Part shown: positions 1,672-7,776 of the stretch, one piece after another
Numbering within the stretch: the first letter of the stretch is position 1
Layout of the letters: the number at the start of each line of letters is the position of its first letter
Source: Candidatus Pacebacteria bacterium CG_4_9_14_0_2_um_filter_40_15
Lineage (GTDB): Bacteria > Patescibacteriota > Microgenomatia > UBA1400 > PJMF01
Assembly (NCBI GenBank): GCA_002788675.1
Contig: PFRS01000004.1
Location: forward strand, 1-49,170
Length of the DNA: 49,170 bases
Reading direction: 5' to 3'
Notes under the pieces: generated by a model
Seen by the model: the letters and a program-made list of their open reading frames with translations, nothing else
What the model was told of the DNA's origin: nothing
Databases searched by the model: none
Translations under genes and position numbers: made by a program

Positions 1672-2073
1672 TTACTCTTCAACTTCAGTTTCAACTGTTT
1701 CAGAAACATCTTCTGCAACTTCAGTTGCTTTGATGTTTTTGATTACTAACATTTCGATAATAGTATCGAGTTTTTTAGTAAGAGTTGCAAATTGTTGTGA
1801 GTAATCAACTTGTGGTGCTTGAGGTCGACTTGGTCTGTCTGAAAAACTTCTCTTGCTAGAGAAATCTCGGCCACCGCCACGGTTGTTACCGCCGCCTTGA
1901 CTCTCGAAACAGTCACTACAAAATACTGGTTTGCCACTTGATGGCATGAAAGGAACTTTACAGTGACTTCCACATTTTGCACAAGTTGCGTCATGCATTT
2001 GTCTATCAGATGAGCCTCTTCGATCGAAATCTCTGCCACCTCTATTACCACCACCTCTGTTGTTGTCGTACAT
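1672..2073 (-). CDS. CxxC-x17-CxxC zinc-ribbon protein with Gly/Arg-rich flanks
   Basis: MHDATCAKCG..CKVPFMPSSGKPVFCSDCF motif. Confidence 0.85.
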   Translation of the reverse strand: MYDNNRGGGNRGGRDFDRRGSSDRQMHDATCAKCGSHCKVPFMPSSGKPVFCSDCFESQGGGNNRGGGRDFSSKRSFSDRPSRPQAPQVDYSQQFATLTKKLDTIIEMLVIKNIKATEVAEDVSETVETEVEE

Positions 2074-2508: not shown

Positions 2509-2605
2509 TACCTATAGAGATAGTGAAATCCTGTTTCCTTACAACTGAACAAATGCAACTTTTTAGCTTGGGAGACACTGTTCAATACTGGACAGCATTT
2601 TGCGC

Positions 2606-2637
2606 TTGAAATAGTTATACAAAATGTATATATTTCA
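2606..2637 (+). promoter_or_regulatory. Sigma70-type promoter of the retron-like operon, overlapped by an imperfect palindrome
   Basis: TTGAAA(2606)-17 nt-TATATT(2629); TGAAATAgtTATAC-aaaat-GTATATATTTCA. Confidence 0.55.
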
Positions 2638-2640
2638 GCT

Positions 2641-2950
2641 GTACCTTAATATTATTACTTTAAATCCCGTAGCGCTGTTCTCGATACAAGACACTCGTTT
2701 GTCTCAAACTCATTTCTCAAGTACAGAGAGATAAGACTTCAACCAAGCACTAATTATATTTGCTTTTTTTGCTTATTTGGTGACACTGATCTGTCAACAT
2801 GGTCTAGATCTATAGAGGCGACCACTTTGCGTGAGAACATATGGGCCGTGTTTATGACGTGTCACTCTACCTTTACTAAGGTAAGATCCAAAGAAAGGAA
2901 TACCCAATATGGCAGAAACACAAATAAATTCTTTTATTAAAGTAGTAGTA
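2641..2950 (+). ncRNA. Putative retron msr-msd-like structured RNA
   Basis: 14-bp long-range stem 2650-2663/2937-2950 (two G-U pairs); inner stem 2666-2682/2833-2845; several local hairpins; directly upstream of HTH-RT. Confidence 0.7.
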
Positions 2951-3073
2951 AGTGTGTCGCCCTTGAGGGTGTTACGAGATGCAGTATTTACTGTTTATCG
3001 TACGGATTTTCAGACTTATTTTCTGGATTTTCCGTTTATTAGAGTCGCTCAGACGCTAGTAAGCACCCTCTAA
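2909..3073 (+). CDS. 54-aa small protein, putative retron effector (absent from the ORF track)
   Basis: AAAGGAA Shine-Dalgarno, then ATG; MAETQINSFIKVVVSVSPLRVLRDAVFTVYRTDFQTYFLDFPFIRVAQTLVSTL; stops 35 nt before the HTH gene. Confidence 0.6.
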   Translation: MAETQINSFIKVVVSVSPLRVLRDAVFTVYRTDFQTYFLDFPFIRVAQTLVSTL

Positions 3074-3108
3074 CTCACTAATATCAGAAAAAATTTTATC
3101 TAAAAACT

Positions 3109-3432
3109 ATGTATTCACTTCCAAATTTTTTAAAAGCATTTCGTAAAGCAACAAACTCTTCTCAGGCTGAGTTTGCAAACTTTCTGAATGTTTCAACAGT
3201 TTTAATATCAATGATCGAGTCACAACAAAAACAAGCATCAAAGAAGTTCATTGAAAATCTAGCAAAAAAAATTGATGTGCATCCTGGAGCTCTTGCATTA
3301 TTTTATTATAATGATGAAGACAGAGAGAGATTAACAAAATTAGAGAAGGAACTTGTTAATATTGGCACAGAATTACAGAGGAAAATTATTTTAAAAAGAG
3401 CAAAAAGCATTAAAATTAATGAAAAAAAATAA
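3109..3432 (+). CDS. XRE/Cro-C1 family helix-turn-helix protein, RT-associated
   Basis: LKAFRK...SQAEFANFLNVSTVLISMIES HTH pattern; 14-nt overlap with the RT gene. Confidence 0.85.
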   Translation: MYSLPNFLKAFRKATNSSQAEFANFLNVSTVLISMIESQQKQASKKFIENLAKKIDVHPGALALFYYNDEDRERLTKLEKELVNIGTELQRKIILKRAKSIKINEKK

Positions 3433-4390
3433 CTACCCACAGTTTGGCATTCGTAGTAAAAATGAATTAGCTAAGCGTATTAGTTCAAAATCTTTACCAG
3501 CTAATGAGGCTCTTATTTTAATAAATGATGTACTTGAAAACCATGAGGGATACTGGAAGGACAGTAAAATGTCTGAACCTGAAAAGGGTAAATATGTCCG
3601 TTCATGTGTTGGAACTCCACTTCATAGATTACTGAACCTCATCGATAAGAGAATACTTAGACCTTATGACAAGTTAGCGCCCCACTTTATTTTTGGTGGA
3701 TTATCAAAAAAAAACCATATCCAAGCTGCTCATTATCTTATTGGTTCAAAAAAAAGAAGGTCTCTTATCAAACTTGACATAAAAAGATTCTATGAACAGA
3801 TCACACAAGAAAGAATTTTTTATTTTTTTTATAAAAAAGCAGGTTGCAGTGTTAGGGCATCTAGACTACTTGCATATATTTGTTGTGTTACCCAAGGTGC
3901 AAAAGGGAATCCCGGTGTTCAAAGGGTTTTAGCTCGCGGCTTTTCTACGTCTTCTCGCCTGGCTGTCTGGGCTAATCTTGATACTTTTTTGAAATTGAGA
4001 TGGAAATTGCAAGCTGAGCTTGGGAAAAATGATCCCAAAATTGCAGTGTATGTTGATGACATTGGGATTTCTGTGGCTGATGTGTCACAGACAAAATTAG
4101 AAGAGATTGCATTAATGATGGCTGAGATTCTCGAGTCATCTGATGCAAATCAACCTTTGCCTATTAATAACGAAAAATTAGATATTATGAGTTTTGAAAA
4201 GAATGCAGAGCACTTAGGTCTGAGGCTAGGGAGAAAAGCTATTTTTATGGGTAACAAGATTATGTCAAAGATTCGTAAGATTAAAAATGACTACCAAAGA
4301 GCTGAAAATAATACAAAATTTAAACTAATGAGTAAGAGAATTGCATATCGTCTATATCAGAAACAAATTGATAAACAAAATGAACAGTAG
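3419..4390 (+). CDS. Reverse transcriptase, divergent retron-like
   Basis: LDIKRFYEQI, LARGFSTSSRLA (PQG-equivalent), catalytic YVDD, INNEK, HLG; 323 aa with no maturase or nuclease domain. Confidence 0.9.
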   Translation: MKKNNYPQFGIRSKNELAKRISSKSLPANEALILINDVLENHEGYWKDSKMSEPEKGKYVRSCVGTPLHRLLNLIDKRILRPYDKLAPHFIFGGLSKKNHIQAAHYLIGSKKRRSLIKLDIKRFYEQITQERIFYFFYKKAGCSVRASRLLAYICCVTQGAKGNPGVQRVLARGFSTSSRLAVWANLDTFLKLRWKLQAELGKNDPKIAVYVDDIGISVADVSQTKLEEIALMMAEILESSDANQPLPINNEKLDIMSFEKNAEHLGLRLGRKAIFMGNKIMSKIRKIKNDYQRAENNTKFKLMSKRIAYRLYQKQIDKQNEQ

Positions 4391-4433: not shown

Positions 4434-4955
4434 TTATTTTTTGTCCAAGCTAAGTTTTTTCAACATTGCTTTATCAGCTTTTGCAGTAAGTCTTTTTTCA
4501 ATTGTCTCTGATTTTATTTCGTTTTCTCTATTTTCTTCAAAAACAGGTTGTAGATCTTCAAGATACTTCATACTGATTCTGTTAGAAAGAATGCTTTCTT
4601 GCGCATTTAACCATGCAGCATAGTCTTGTAGTACCATAGCTGTTTGTTTAATATCAAACTTGAATTTTTCTTGTAGGTGGATATTTAATCCAGATATTTT
4701 TTCTTGTTTTAAACCGACTTCGCTGATTTCTCCCACTCGCCTATTGTATTCCTTTTGCCCTCTCATTTTGATCATGATTTCGCTGCTCTTTTCGATATCA
4801 TCAAGAACATCAGCTAAAGATTCTTTAAACCGCTGTTCACTTCTAAAAACATAGTCGGTAATTTTTTCCATTGCTTTCTGAGGTTGTTCACTCGCCCAAT
4901 TTTGAAGCAAGCCGTATGCAATAAAAATTATTACTAAAACAACAACAATTTCCAT
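4434..4955 (-). CDS. Hypothetical protein with N-terminal membrane anchor and helical body
   Basis: 173-aa ORF with hydrophobic N-terminus. Confidence 0.75.
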   Translation of the reverse strand: MEIVVVLVIIFIAYGLLQNWASEQPQKAMEKITDYVFRSEQRFKESLADVLDDIEKSSEIMIKMRGQKEYNRRVGEISEVGLKQEKISGLNIHLQEKFKFDIKQTAMVLQDYAAWLNAQESILSNRISMKYLEDLQPVFEENRENEIKSETIEKRLTAKADKAMLKKLSLDKK

Positions 4956-5288: not shown

Positions 5289-6029
5289 ATGGAAGGAATT
5301 ATGAAAATATTTATAGATGAGTCAGGCGACCATAATCTTGACTCGACAAAGTTGGATAATAGCTACAATGTTTTCGTGCTGGGAGCAGTATGTTTTTCTG
5401 AAGATAACTATCAGTTACTTTGTGAGAGGCTTAATCAGATAAAGCAAGACCTATTTGGTGGCAAAGATTACATAATTCATACAGCTGAGATTGTTAGACC
5501 AAGCAATTCTACAGATCCACGAACACAATTATTCAATAATATAGATTTCAGAAATACATTTTATTCAACAATAGAGAATATTTTTGACGAAATCAATTTT
5601 GAAGTGATTGCTTGTTGTGTTAAGAAATCACAGCATCTTGAGAGATATGGAGCATATGCTAGTGACCCGTACATATTTGGTTTTGAAAACATCTTGAATA
5701 GAATAATGTGGAGGTCAAAAGGTGAAAAATGTGAGATATACCCTGAAAAAAGATCTCAAGCTGAAGATGGATTGCTTGAAATTAATTATTTAAAAGCAAA
5801 AATGTCGGGCACGAAGTTTTTTACTGGTAGTCAGGTATCCGCTAGAATTGAGACTTTTAAAACAATTGATAAAAAAGCTAATGAGTGTGGGTCACAGATT
5901 GCGGACCTAGTTGTAAGTCCGATTGGAAGACATTTTATGGGTATCAAACCTAGAAAACCGGGAAATGAACTTAAATATCAGACTGTTAAGCGAAAAATTC
6001 CAAATAGGTGTCTCACTGTGTTTCCGTAG
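5289..6029 (+). CDS. DUF3800-like protein (RNase H-like acidic motifs)
   Basis: N-terminal IFIDESGD, FVLGAV, C-terminal QIADLV. Confidence 0.85.
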   Translation: MEGIMKIFIDESGDHNLDSTKLDNSYNVFVLGAVCFSEDNYQLLCERLNQIKQDLFGGKDYIIHTAEIVRPSNSTDPRTQLFNNIDFRNTFYSTIENIFDEINFEVIACCVKKSQHLERYGAYASDPYIFGFENILNRIMWRSKGEKCEIYPEKRSQAEDGLLEINYLKAKMSGTKFFTGSQVSARIETFKTIDKKANECGSQIADLVVSPIGRHFMGIKPRKPGNELKYQTVKRKIPNRCLTVFP

Positions 6030-6181: not shown

Positions 6182-6391
6182 TTAAAAACCCAAAAGTTTT
6201 GAAGCGGTACTATCCAAAGCTTTAGTGAGCTTTTTGATAGTTTTTATAGTAGAGTTGCTATTTCCAGACTCAATAAAACGAATTGTTCTCACATCTCGAT
6301 CAATTTGGTATGCCAGTTCCTCCTGAGAAAGCCCGAGCGCTTTTCTTCGCGTCCGAACATTTTCACCAAATACCTGAAATATACTTCCCAT
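6182..6391 (-). CDS. XRE-family HTH regulator (controller-protein-like)
   Basis: FGENVRTRRKALGLSQEELA...IESGNSN. Confidence 0.9.
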   Translation of the reverse strand: MGSIFQVFGENVRTRRKALGLSQEELAYQIDRDVRTIRFIESGNSNSTIKTIKKLTKALDSTASKLLGF

Positions 6392-6464: not shown

Positions 6465-7091
6465 ATGAAAACAAATAGACTAATTTTTCAACTACTTGGA
6501 TCAATAACTGAGTTTTTGTTAGATGATGAAACATGGAAATTGTTTGGTTACAAAAAAAGACCTAAGCGTGGAGCAATTTTTTCAAGACTATTTCCTAAAA
6601 AATATGAACTTGATAACTTTATATTCAGGCATTTTTTCATACTTGGAGTTATTGATGTACTAAATGGAATTAAAAAATCAAAACAGTCGGATTATAATAA
6701 GACGATTGTGATTCTAAACTTTTTTGAAGAAGTGGATGTGTTATCAAAGAACACTGATTGTTTGACTGACTTATTAAAAGACCTACCAACAGCATACGAC
6801 ATATACAAAGAATCAAATCCAAAGAATCTTTATGAGCCATATTTAAGTAAATCGGAAAACGTCCTTGGAAGTACAAATTCAGCAAGATTTCTGATTGGCA
6901 TATCAAAAATTCAGTTTGAACGAATGTTAATGGATATCAGTGCTAAAGACTTTTTCCTTTCTTCAGATCGTGTTGCTGAATTAATAAACACCCAAGACAT
7001 TGCAGCTGTTAAAGAAGATTTGACAGGCTTTTCAAAAGAAACATTAGAAGAGTATGGAAAATTCATATCAAAACTAATTTCCGAAATTTAG
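6465..7091 (+). CDS. Hypothetical protein
   Basis: 208-aa ORF divergent from the HTH gene; no recognised motif. Confidence 0.7.
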   Translation: MKTNRLIFQLLGSITEFLLDDETWKLFGYKKRPKRGAIFSRLFPKKYELDNFIFRHFFILGVIDVLNGIKKSKQSDYNKTIVILNFFEEVDVLSKNTDCLTDLLKDLPTAYDIYKESNPKNLYEPYLSKSENVLGSTNSARFLIGISKIQFERMLMDISAKDFFLSSDRVAELINTQDIAAVKEDLTGFSKETLEEYGKFISKLISEI

Positions 7092-7188: not shown

Positions 7189-7776
7189 ATGCCAGAGCTT
7201 TTTGTAGACAGCAACGATGAGAACGCAATTAAACAACCATTTGGAATTTGGATTGCTTCGCTAGTAGTATTTTTTATTTCAATTTTCTCATTAGCAAGCG
7301 AGCAGCTTGTGGTTTTCATATTTGGATTTTTACTCGTAGCTTCATTTGTTGTAGGAGTAATTGCATTTATTATTATGGTTGTGAGAGTAGTTAGAACTCT
7401 TTTAAAGAATGAATCTTTCAAGAGTGGGTTGGGTTCTGTTATTTCTTATGGAGCTTTTATTATTTTTGGACTTTTCCTCCTAAGAGGTTGTACTTCAAGT
7501 GGAAGTAGCAGCAGTGGCGGAGGAAGATATTATGATGATTACGATAGCTACGATTACTATGAAGAACCTGTAACTAGTGATAGCTGGGACTGTACAAGTG
7601 ACTGTTCTGGACACGAGGCAGGGTATGAATGGGCTGAGGACAAAGGAATCACAGATCCAGACGATTGTGGTGGCAATTCTGATTCATTTATTGAAGGCTG
7701 TGAAGCATATGCAAATGAATACAATATGGACAATTATGATGAAGAGTATTATGACGATTATGATTATTACTATTAG
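7189..7776 (+). CDS. Membrane protein with Cys-rich acidic C-terminal domain
   Basis: About 3 hydrophobic helices, then CTSDCSGHEAGYEWA...DC..SFIEGC and a Tyr/Asp-rich tail. Confidence 0.8.
   Translation: MPELFVDSNDENAIKQPFGIWIASLVVFFISIFSLASEQLVVFIFGFLLVASFVVGVIAFIIMVVRVVRTLLKNESFKSGLGSVISYGAFIIFGLFLLRGCTSSGSSSSGGGRYYDDYDSYDYYEEPVTSDSWDCTSDCSGHEAGYEWAEDKGITDPDDCGGNSDSFIEGCEAYANEYNMDNYDEEYYDDYDYYY

Follow-up and report, generated by a model that had tools for sequence, protein, structure and literature searches.

A type VI retron locus from an uncultured groundwater bacterium in which a nested 26-amino-acid frame is the most likely toxin gene

Introduction

Type VI retrons are anti-phage elements and the sole retron class in which one and the same RNA provides the reverse transcriptase (RT) template and the mRNA of the toxin. 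Its mechanism is debated: the accessible parts of two preprints describe translational control for Retron-Vpa2 and post-translational control for Retron-Sen3. Retron-Vpa2 of Vibrio parahaemolyticus has the gene order ncRNA-SP-HTH-RT, SP being the small protein, and a structured hybrid RNA (hyRNA) of approximately 470 nt that serves both as RT template and as a small toxin gene; the ribosome binding site (RBS) of the toxin is hidden in stems, and inverted repeats tie the arms of the RNA to a central node (Zhang et al., bioRxiv 10.1101/2025.10.22.683967). In the accessible part of that preprint, the toxin is one 55-aa frame that has a hydrophobic helix at its C-terminus, reporters demonstrated that it is translated, and mutation of residues I39, F43 and F45 lowers toxicity (Zhang et al., bioRxiv 10.1101/2025.10.22.683967). 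The Retron-Sen3/cl2075 type VI lineage, as far as its preprint is accessible, has alternative long-range pairings of the template hairpin with the flanks of the SP gene, an HTH gene that adjoins or overlaps the RT gene, and an SP with an amphipathic helix at its end (Garcia-Rodriguez et al., bioRxiv 10.64898/2026.04.27.721009). The gene order, the structured RNA with a hidden toxin RBS, the inverted repeats, the long-range pairings and the helix of these systems have proposed counterparts in the locus described below. In contrast to that locus, the Sen3 SP in the same source is a single 79-aa frame that is made constitutively and neutralised by the HTH protein.

Single-frame SPs are also found on a Sphingobium plasmid (AP027326), an Aeromonas plasmid (LC735978) and E. 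coli chromosomes (NZ_CP048821, NZ_CP023820). In these proteobacterial loci, a gene of 51-57 aa lies directly 5' of HTH-RT and encodes a C-terminal Ile/Leu/Trp/Arg/Lys helix, and a pyrimidine-rich element follows right after the stop codon. A comparable regulatory layout is known from the type I toxin-antitoxin system hok/mok/sok, where a longer leader ORF overlaps and encloses the short ORF of a hydrophobic toxin, the SD of the toxin is masked by a fold-back with the 3' end of its own mRNA, and the leader has to be translated for the mask to open.

Identity and distribution of the locus

The window, by which we mean the whole analysed stretch of 49,170 nt, belongs to the 1.22-Mb genome of an uncultured groundwater bacterium (contig PFRS01000004.1). 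Positions 2606-4390 hold a structured RNA, a small ORF, an HTH gene and an RT gene, in that order. The features that frame the RNA are as follows.

2606..2634, + strand: promoter-like site, TTGAAA, 17 nt, TATATT (consensus match only)
3109..3432, + strand: HTH protein, 107 aa (Pfam HTH_3 1.2e-06; PADLOC HTH_VI 7.6e-13)
3419..4390, + strand: retron reverse transcriptase, 323 aa (Pfam RVT_1 6e-10; PADLOC RT_VI 2.6e-27)

By its PADLOC RT_VI and HTH_VI profile matches and the order RNA-ORF-HTH-RT, the locus is a type VI retron. The RT_VI match of the RT covers 316 residues and is followed by RT_II-A at 2.8e-14; the NCBIfam retron St85 RT is matched at 1.4e-12, under the family cut-off. Placement in the type VI RT clade is read from profile scores, with the classes of Mestre 2020 as in PADLOC. 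The HTH and RT genes overlap by 14 nt (3419-3432), in keeping with type VI, where a Cro/C1-type HTH gene adjoins the RT gene on its 5' side or overlaps it, and the HTH gene stands 5' of the RT gene in 123 of 142 related loci. A small ORF is present 5' of the HTH gene as expected of an SP, but the hydrophobic helix is found in a frame nested within it and not in the annotated frame. The promoter-like site is the top of nine consensus matches, with 10 of 12 positions, and would begin the RNA a few bases 5' of the first arm (a1) of the clamp described below. A scan against Rfam matched no family and returned six chance-level matches, the best with an E-value of 0.5.

The RT belongs to a mostly Patescibacteria-labelled group, different from that of Sen3/cl2075, in which its best matches do not exceed 58% identity. 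No member of the RT family turned up in four other genomes of the genus or in 16 of the order, and the other genera of the host family (20 genomes) gave a single weak match, which was to a different RT. Such a scattered distribution is compatible with an accessory element. The stretch is present in the 24 public DNA runs listed, which are groundwater or aquifer metagenomes, and no RNA run was among the public runs listed; contigs from four public runs compared with positions 2600-3450 contain zero variant letters.

Related loci were collected from genomes (61) and metagenomes (80), which together with the window gives 142, of which 116 are usable and 99 distinct. The genome relatives were gathered with an alignment of 35 RTs, a single RT query having found none. 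Synonymous changes were counted over 23 independent gapless pairs, as single-base codon changes in the region where the two small frames overlap, with an expected fraction of 0.21-0.23.

Two overlapping small frames

The small frames and the SD-like motif of the longer one are listed below.

2893..2899, + strand: SD-like GAAAGGA of ORF A (SD-A), read from the sequence
2909..3073, + strand: ORF A, 54 aa; open frame conserved, protein not; likely a translated leader
2979..3059, + strand: ORF B, +1 frame, 26 aa, MQYLLFIVRIFRLIFWIFRLLESLRR; proposed toxin, followed by a second in-frame stop

The initial annotation proposed the 54-aa ORF A as the toxin. Conservation of its frame can be confirmed in the sense that it is open with an ATG in 93 of the 99 distinct loci, but conservation does not extend to the protein. 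Of the changes in the overlap, which is the C-terminal half of ORF A, 15 of 141 are synonymous in frame A (expected 0.21), whereas frame B has 92 of 137 and frame C 31 of 135. No excess is seen in the N-terminal part of ORF A either (20 of 79, expected 0.21). For the HTH gene, used as a positive control on the same 23 pairs, 408 of 495 changes are synonymous in the true frame, and the off frames give 0.13 and 0.06. Codon entropy points the same way: a nucleotide-only alignment of 93 loci gives 1.415, 0.84 and 1.641 for positions B1, B2 and B3, and the third positions of ORF A are its least variable (1.12 vs 1.50 and 1.36) even on an alignment of the ORF A protein. Since it is the nested +1 frame that is under selection, a toxin role of the 54-aa peptide is very unlikely. 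Judged by these codon statistics, the toxin is most likely encoded by the 26-aa ORF at 2979-3059. An antisense ORF under the helix was considered as well and rejected; the minus strand has no ORF of at least 40 aa there, and coding on the plus strand agrees with the observed phase order, B3 > B1 > B2.

In 110 of 116 loci (93 of 99 distinct), the 18-aa stretch of highest hydrophobicity is encoded in the frame +1 to the long ATG ORF, and an SD-like 4-mer (G-run) precedes ATG-B in 77 of 84 loci, while ATG-A is preceded by one in just 21 of 93. Arguments from SD motifs are weaker in this genome because of its low SD use (8 of 38 large ORFs). The ORF B family is predicted to form one helix (pLDDT 90.7), and the peptide has a net charge of +4 and a hydrophobic moment of 0.66. 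ORF B encodes a predicted cationic amphipathic helix that is like the toxic C-terminal helix of the proteobacterial SPs, and a pyrimidine-rich element follows its stop codon, as it does in those loci. Unlike the window, the proteobacterial SPs have a polar N-terminus and the helix in one frame with one start, and no second open frame crosses the helix. The window family likewise differs from Vpa2, as far as the latter is described in the accessible part of its preprint, in that the conserved helix is encoded apart from the long frame, in a +1 frame that has an ATG and an SD of its own, and in that the protein of the long frame is unselected.

The sequence similarity of ORF B to the SP helices is weak and short of statistical significance. 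An HMM of the B peptides placed the annotated Sphingobium SP first of 228 six-frame segments from two proteobacterial loci, at an E-value of 0.063, and missed the Aeromonas SP among the same segments. A profile of 80 ORF B peptides had no match at E <= 0.001 in 1.84 billion proteins, a search in which a hydrophobic profile of 24 positions cannot reach significance. Pfam assigned the 80 peptides to no family and gave three chance matches with E-values of 0.056 or worse.

Fold of the RNA

The paired elements of the RNA are given below in order of position.

2650-2663, + strand: a1, 5' arm of the outer clamp, TATTATTACTTTAA; paired in the MFE structure, P(unpaired) 0.05
2757..2926, + strand: long imperfect hairpin, presumed msd (RT template); 2757-2781 with 2902-2926, 72% complementary, in the MFE structure
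2817..2822, + strand: 5' arm GGCGAC of P-LR, a family-wide long-range helix; partner 2956-2961
2937-2950, + strand: a2, 3' arm of the outer clamp, TTAAAGTAGTAGTA; paired in the MFE structure
2956..2961, + strand: 3' arm GTCGCC of P-LR, adjoining the ORF B stem on its 5' side
2965..2975, + strand: 5' arm of the ORF B stem, GAGGGTGTTAC; contains the SD-like GAGGG at 2965-2969, P(unpaired) 0.00
3059..3070, + strand: 3' arm of the ORF B stem (anti-SD), GTAAGCACCCTC; from the ORF B stop to the ORF A stop codon

All sequence features listed by the initial annotation are present where it placed them. The RNA at 2640-3110 has an MFE of -117.6 kcal/mol (z = -3.0), and none of 100 dinucleotide shuffles is as stable. 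The MFE structure includes the a1/a2 clamp and the stem between 2965 and 3070, and ensemble pairing reaches 95-100% for a1, a2 and the two arms of the stem. Two structural features of a hyRNA, inverted repeats of the a1/a2 type and a toxin RBS hidden in a structured RNA, are both found in this predicted fold.

The fold-back of GAGGGTGTTAC on GTAAGCACCCTC, proposed from the window alone, covaries across 75 loci. Over its nine pairs, 97.8% of 674 cells are paired, compared with 83.9% in shuffled data, a level that 0 of 500 shuffles reach; cells with a double change number 120 vs 28.4 in shuffles, and slid controls give 29-61%. RNAalifold on the 75 loci keeps only this outer stem, with no conserved pairs inside. 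The inner hairpins that had been described, CAGTA/TACTG (2982-2986/2990-2994) and ACGGA/TCCGT (3002-3006/3032-3036), are accordingly in the window MFE but not conserved. A direct repeat of the anti-SD arm occurs within the presumed template in 31 of 93 related loci, recalling the 7-nt repeats of Vpa2 described in the accessible part of its preprint.

The clamp consists of 14 pairs, two of which are G-U, and its 3' arm coincides exactly with codons 10-14 of ORF A (codon 10 at 2936-2938, codon 14 at 2948-2950), as initially described. A clamp at the equivalent site is a feature of the family, with stems of other sequence in the relatives. In 42 of 88 loci, no more than 3 nt separate the end of its 3' arm from the conserved helix that follows, compared with 209 of 1056 (20%) when the upstream sequence is shuffled. 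An unrestricted clamp search in 44 loci did not rise above shuffles and became informative once the 3' window was restricted. In retrons, msDNA synthesis by the RT is primed from a branching G beside a1/a2; near a1, TAGC at 2670-2673 resembles the branching context of Ec86.

The start of ORF A was said to be locked inside the clamp. SD-A and ATG-A do lie inside it topologically, but their predicted P(unpaired) is 0.59 and 0.58. The SD that is fully paired is the GAGGG serving the nested ORF B and not SD-A. A further proposed pairing, AAAGAA (2890-2895) with TTCTTT (2929-2934), is complementary yet unused in the fold (P(unpaired) 0.98 and 0.88). The hairpin at 2757..2926 is presumed to be the RT template, and its 3' strand carries SD-A and ATG-A. 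In 78 of 92 loci the P-LR helix scores z > 2, and its compensatory variants are numerous. It is absent from the window MFE, and forcing it costs 9-11 kcal/mol; its 5' arm in the window was placed by position (-91 from ATG-A), the automatic best pair being instead 2779-2786/2954-2961.

Proposed mechanism and alternatives

The RNA at 2640-3110 is probably a type VI hybrid RNA that carries an unselected ORF A and a nested toxin gene, ORF B, silenced by the stem, and works as outlined here. ORF A starts inside the a1/a2 clamp, its frame being kept open and its peptide unselected, and ORF B would correspond to the toxic helix at the C-terminus of type VI SPs. Because SD-B lies inside the conserved stem, ORF B should be translationally silent in the folded RNA, and toxin synthesis would need the stem to be opened. 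Ribosomes translating ORF A across the stem may do this by coupling of the hok/mok type; alternatively, the RNA may be refolded by msDNA or by a trigger, as published for Retron-Vpa2. The general proposal of an RNA that acts as RT template and, at the same time, as a silenced mRNA for the toxin is supported, and the RT and HTH proteins score best on the PADLOC type VI models. This dual role is not new, as the published type VI model (Retron-Vpa2 hyRNA; Retron-Sen3) already contains it. What would be new is which frame encodes the toxin, namely the nested 26-aa ORF B rather than the 54-aa frame.

ORF A has the appearance of a leader whose translation would run through the ORF B stem and stop just 5' of an HTH gene without an SD. 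Upstream of the stem, frame A is open for a median of 25.5 codons (minimum 19), compared with 11 and 7 in the other frames (44 loci). Its stop lies 4-35 nt (median 9) 5' of the HTH gene. An SD-like 4-mer precedes the HTH ATG in only 3 of 93 loci, and the HTH gene of the window has no SD of its own. As the ORF A stop shortly precedes this SD-less gene, ORF A may also supply ribosomes to HTH. The leader role cannot be universal, since ORF A is unusable (absent or without an ATG) in three of the 99 loci (L036, L064 and L125), which include the closest RT relative. With ATG-A in the presumed RT template and a2 within ORF A, translation of ORF A and RT priming should exclude each other. We infer both the coupling step and the competition between ribosome and RT from this layout.

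Among other readings of the two frames, a programmed +1 ribosomal frameshift that fuses the N-terminal portion of ORF A with the helix of frame B, giving an SP of ~49 aa, fares best, although we regard it as unlikely. The product would be built like the proteobacterial SPs, with a polar N-terminus and a helix; the distance from ATG-A to the B stop, ~49 codons, is inside the range of single-frame SPs (48-57 aa, L060 included), and the shift would account for the retained ATG-A and open frame. In prfB, an SD-like G-run 5' of the shift site stimulates +1 shifting. A frameshift needs no ATG-B, however, yet an ATG 18-34 codons 5' of the B stop is present in frame B in 89 of 99 loci, compared with 6 in frame C and 19 in frame A. 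Inspection by eye of a subset of loci showed no common slippery site or frame A stop between the stem arm and the helix, and the fusion would include an N-terminal part without amino-acid selection.

Slightly less probable is that ORF B is an independent toxin gene and that ORF A, with no part in activation, only couples HTH or acts as a shield that keeps ORF B off. The scarcity of SD motifs before HTH and the short distance from the ORF A stop agree with coupling, and a ribosome that reads frame A would sit on SD-B and ATG-B. On the other side, the three loci without a usable ORF A also lack an SD 5' of HTH by eye.

It is highly improbable that the SP toxin is the 54-aa ORF A peptide and that ORF B is a by-product of composition. 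The retained ATG, a length close to the 55 aa of the Vpa2 SP and the record of gene callers speak for it: ORF A is in public protein collections as a hypothetical protein, and eight of ten ORF A sequences, compared with none of ten ORF B sequences, are in a collection of 15 billion proteins. The substitution pattern and the low variability of the third positions described above are opposed to it, as are an AlphaFold2 pLDDT of 52.7 (89 sequences) and the lack of any match in Pfam or PADLOC; a sequence search with the 54-aa peptide returned only itself. ORF A of the window has an aromatic stretch near the Vpa2 residues I39, F43 and F45, which is unconserved in the family. [quoted passage not shown]

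The preferred reading of a silenced, nested ORF B invites comparison with hok/mok/sok. A toxin ORF nested in a leader ORF and a toxin SD hidden by a fold-back are found in both, and the locus would work like that system without being a member of it. As far as a promoter scan shows, the locus has no antisense RNA antitoxin, and it is unrelated in sequence, with no Pfam match to the Hok/Gef toxin family (Hok_Gef). [quoted passage not shown] A more speculative extension, which we offer tentatively, is that the toxin gene of this large, mostly Patescibacteria-borne branch of type VI is dual-coded: a leader ORF of unconstrained sequence, with its start within the RT template and the a1/a2 priming clamp, must be translated to open the stem hiding the start of a nested helical toxin of 20-30 aa and feeds ribosomes to the SD-less HTH gene, and a contest of ribosome and RT switches between cDNA and toxin/antitoxin through a hok/mok-like gate.

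Implications

If the toxin conserved in this large branch of uncultured bacteria is the nested frame of 20-30 aa, which has never been annotated, public annotation and annotation-based clustering of SPs name the wrong peptide for these loci. The stem would then be a riboregulator that is open to testing and acts on one particular start site. The leader ORF that overlaps the presumed RT template suggests a direct competition between ribosome and RT, which can be tested. The locus is a clean example of codon-phase statistics correcting a plausible ORF call.

The retron locus and its surroundings

Judged from its sequence, the gene order of the window locus is that of a type VI retron. All of the features listed in the initial annotation are found where it placed them.

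Features of the retron locus in the window
2606–2634: promoter-like site (TTGAAA, 17 nt, TATATT), just upstream of the RNA
2650–2663/2937–2950: inverted repeat, 14 pairs including two G-U, the outer clamp (arms a1/a2); 3' arm is codons 10–14 of ORF A
2817–2822/2956–2961: GGCGAC/GTCGCC, the family-wide long-range helix (P-LR), assigned by position
2890–2895: AAAGAA
2893–2899: SD-like GAAAGGA (SD-A)
2909–3073: ORF A, 54 aa, starting at ATG 2909 (ATG-A)
2929–2934: TTCTTT
2965–2975/3059–3070: ORF B stem, GAGGGTGTTAC/GTAAGCACCCTC; two inner hairpins also present
2979–3059: ORF B, 26 aa, nested in the +1 frame, MQYLLFIVRIFRLIFWIFRLLESLRR; net charge +4, hydrophobic moment 0.66
3109–3432: HTH protein, 107 aa; Pfam HTH_3, PADLOC HTH_VI (7.6e-13)
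3419–4390: reverse transcriptase (RT), 323 aa; Pfam RVT_1, PADLOC RT_VI (2.6e-27; second-best model RT_II-A, 2.8e-14)

The host genome (1,218,889 bases, 10 contigs) carries the RT in one copy. No member of the RT family was found in the genus (4 other genomes) or the order (16 genomes), and a single weak match among 20 genomes from other genera of the family was to a different RT. This fits an accessory element. The stretch is present in groundwater and aquifer metagenomes. The closest RTs share at most 58% identity and, where named, bear Patescibacteria-type names.

Features around the retron
1672–2073 (minus strand): CxxC-x17-CxxC protein gene, upstream of the retron
2326–2362: hairpin then T-run, between that gene and the retron; resembles a terminator rather than a repeat, with a chance-level match to CRISPR-DR63 (E 0.5)
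4434–4955 (minus strand): convergent 173-aa protein beside the retron, no family, hydrophobic N-terminus
5289–6029: DUF3800 protein beside the retron (Pfam 1.8e-11; weak PADLOC PDC-M04A match, 2.4e-4)
6182–6391 (minus strand): 69-aa XRE/HipB-like HTH (TIGR03070, 3.6e-10, below its cut-off)
6465–7091: 208-aa protein of no family, divergent from the 69-aa HTH
7189–7776: 195-aa protein, no family match; hydrophobic segments, C-terminal tail nearly all Tyr/Asp/Glu

The DUF3800 and 173-aa proteins may be part of a small defence island, and the 69-aa HTH and 208-aa protein are a possible toxin-antitoxin-like pair.

Two overlapping frames and selection

A word-based search with the 54-aa ORF A peptide returned no relative. 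Related loci were fetched with an alignment of 35 RTs, 61 from genome contigs and 80 from metagenomes, giving 142 with the window; an HTH N-terminus precedes the RT in 123, at least 230 clean upstream bases are available in 116, and 99 differ from one another over the 200 bases preceding the HTH gene. A long ATG ORF (at least 40 aa) ending beside the HTH gene, with the most hydrophobic 18-residue stretch in its +1 frame, is found in 110 of the 116 loci and 93 of the 99 distinct ones. Among the exceptions, L036, L125 and L064 have no usable long ORF (in L064, the closest RT relative, the frame is open and the ATG absent), L060 and L141 have the helix in its own ATG frame (48 aa in L060; a long ORF is also present in L141) and L034 is ambiguous. 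In the Gracilibacteria-labelled L060 (1972–2181) the helix is in frame with an upstream ATG; the other frame lacks an ATG, and its sole stop in the overlap is a TGA, which table 25 translates as Gly.

In 44 loci, the median open length of frame A upstream of the stem is 25.5 codons (minimum 19), while the other two frames reach 11 and 7, so its openness is selected. Its protein shows a different pattern. In the ORF A protein alignment, variability is lowest at the third codon position (entropy 1.12 vs 1.50 and 1.36), which is nearly always T in the overlap. Frame B positions 1, 2 and 3 have entropies of 1.415, 0.84 and 1.641 in a nucleotide-only alignment of 93 loci. Single-base codon differences were counted in 23 independent gapless pairs picked from 58. 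Within the overlap, synonymous changes make up 92/137 in frame B, 15/141 in frame A and 31/135 in frame C (expected fraction 0.21–0.23), and the N-terminal part of ORF A favours none of the frames (A 20/79, B 23/78, C 14/76). For the HTH gene, a control from the same pairs, 408 of 495 are synonymous in the true frame, with fractions of 0.13 and 0.06 off frame. Purifying selection acts on frame B only, and the ORF A protein is not selected. The initial annotation proposed ORF A as a hidden toxin frame to be checked by conservation; the frame is indeed kept open across loci, but the selected protein is that of frame B. In outline its interpretation holds, but it probably picks the wrong peptide as the one that matters.

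Frame B peptides of 18–34 aa have an ATG start (ATG-B) in 89 of 99 loci; an ATG at this distance from the B stop occurs in 6 and 19 of 99 in the other two frames. The consensus of 80 distinct peptides is xxxxLRIxRIILxIIRILxDxxx. AlphaFold2 predicts one helix for the B family (pLDDT 90.7; the first sequence was a 31-aa member, the window peptide being too short for the tool), and ORF A reaches a pLDDT of 52.7 (89 of 93 sequences, four near-duplicates excluded). Of 10 peptides from each frame, public collections contain 8 for ORF A and 0 for ORF B.

Start signals and conserved RNA helices

ATG-B is preceded at 4–18 nt by an SD-like 4-mer in 77 of 84 loci, ATG-A in 21 of 93 and the HTH ATG in 3 of 93; Saccharibacteria-labelled loci have a plain GGAGG at the ORF B site (SD-B). 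Because host SDs are sparse (8 of the 38 window ORFs of at least 150 aa), this within-locus contrast weighs more than the motif. Immediately upstream of the ATG, several of these 38 ORFs carry a TATAAT-like box, suggesting that many mRNAs are leaderless or have short leaders.

The 5' arm of the ORF B stem is a G-run ending 0–11 nt before ATG-B, and the 3' (anti-SD) arm spans from the B stop to the A stop. All 44 loci of the initial set contain the stem (mean score 26.4 vs 15.1 shuffled). Across 75 of 93 aligned loci its nine pairs are 97.8% paired over 674 cells, a level that 0/500 shuffles reach (shuffled 83.9%), with 120 double-change cells vs 28.4 shuffled; slid controls give 29–61%. The 18 excluded loci, namely longer Saccharibacteria-type loci, two with mis-set arms and three near-duplicates, had their own stems in the earlier stem scan. 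The inner hairpins pointed out initially are present in the window, but no inner pair is conserved across the 75-locus alignment.

The RNA at 2640–3110 folds at −117.6 kcal/mol (z = −3.0, equalled by 0/100 shuffles), and its minimum-energy structure holds both the a1/a2 clamp and the 2965/3070 stem. The initial annotation described the ORF A start as locked: all four arms are 95–100% paired in the ensemble, but pairing of SD-A and ATG-A reaches only about 40%, and AAAGAA and TTCTTT, which it had paired, stay open.

In P-LR, an element 80–110 nt before ATG-A pairs with the 8–12 nt immediately 5' of the G-run; z exceeds 2 in 78 of 92 loci, and compensatory variants are numerous. The 3' arm of the clamp abuts P-LR in 42 of 88 loci, vs 20% in controls. 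The two helices, each supported across the family, cross each other, so that the retron RNA either forms a pseudoknot or adopts alternative conformers. Enforcing P-LR in the window costs 9–11 kcal/mol and loses a1/a2, with SD-B still paired. Alternative long-range pairings are also described in the cl2075 work (bioRxiv 10.64898/2026.04.27.721009). The conserved ORF A motifs 'VPF/LPY' and '..V.AL' are RNA arms read as codons.

A direct repeat of at least 6 nt of the anti-SD arm, such as CCCCTT, occurs in the presumed RT template, within 45 nt before ATG-A, in 31 of 93 loci (shuffles 6.7%; L016, L020 and L073 are examples); in the window it is only 5 nt. By base-pairing with the arm, cDNA made from this repeat could release SD-B, in keeping with the repeat idea already published.

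Comparison with known type VI retrons

Retron-Vpa2 has a ~470-nt 'hybrid RNA' that combines msr-msd with a 55-aa toxic small protein (SP) whose RBS and start codon are buried in stem-loops; msDNA accumulating in response to phage triggers relieves the repression of SP translation (Zhang et al., bioRxiv 10.1101/2025.10.22.683967). For Retron-Sen3, Garcia-Rodriguez et al. (bioRxiv 10.64898/2026.04.27.721009) report alternative long-range pairings around the SP gene, the HTH protein as antitoxin, and SPs that end in a helix, either hydrophobic or amphipathic. Given these descriptions, the initial idea of one RNA serving as RT template and silenced toxin mRNA matches the published model. The accessible parts of both preprints and the other literature searched make no mention of a second reading frame.

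Searching plasmids with the RT (tblastn) gave one Sphingobium and one Aeromonas locus. With the Aeromonas DNA as query, HTH-RT loci resembling this type VI locus turned up in 57 of 5426 complete E. coli genomes, and two of them, both chromosomal, were examined (L146, L147). Beside these lie genes for a DinI family protein or a replication endonuclease and for an FRG-domain protein. The SPs of the four proteobacterial loci (51–57 aa) are polar at the N-terminus and carry an Ile/Leu/Trp/Arg/Lys helix at the C-terminus, all in a single frame. Their genes, like ORF B in the window, have a pyrimidine-rich element after the stop; with the helix, this places ORF B at the SP helix position. An HMM of B peptides ranks the Sphingobium SP first among 228 segments, a weak match (E 0.063) that does not establish homology.

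Proposed working and alternatives

The type VI genes, the structured RNA, selection on frame B, the conserved ATG-B and G-run, the covarying stem that pairs the G-run and the openness of frame A are established. ORF B would be the toxin, silent in the folded RNA and switched on by stem opening. In the hok system, translation of mok switches hok on. The stem could likewise be opened by ribosomes running along ORF A or, by analogy with Vpa2, by msDNA or a trigger. Frame A ends just before the SD-less HTH gene, and ORF A would also bring ribosomes to it. With ATG-A inside the presumed template and a2 inside ORF A, translation and priming would be mutually exclusive.

A +1 frameshift could instead yield an A-B fusion of SP size, as ATG-A to the B stop is ~49 codons; with ATG-B conserved, this is unlikely. 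That ORF A serves HTH coupling or occlusion alone is slightly less likely again, and the 54-aa peptide as the toxin, a frame kept open with an unselected protein, is very improbable. The absence of any translation is scarcely credible beside the synonymous changes in frame B.

The preferred reading, a frame B toxin released by stem opening, leaves the system of a known kind, a type VI retron. The nested frame, unannotated and with a hidden start of its own, recurs across about a hundred loci and, with Vpa2 and Sen3 compared by description, would be a new variant.
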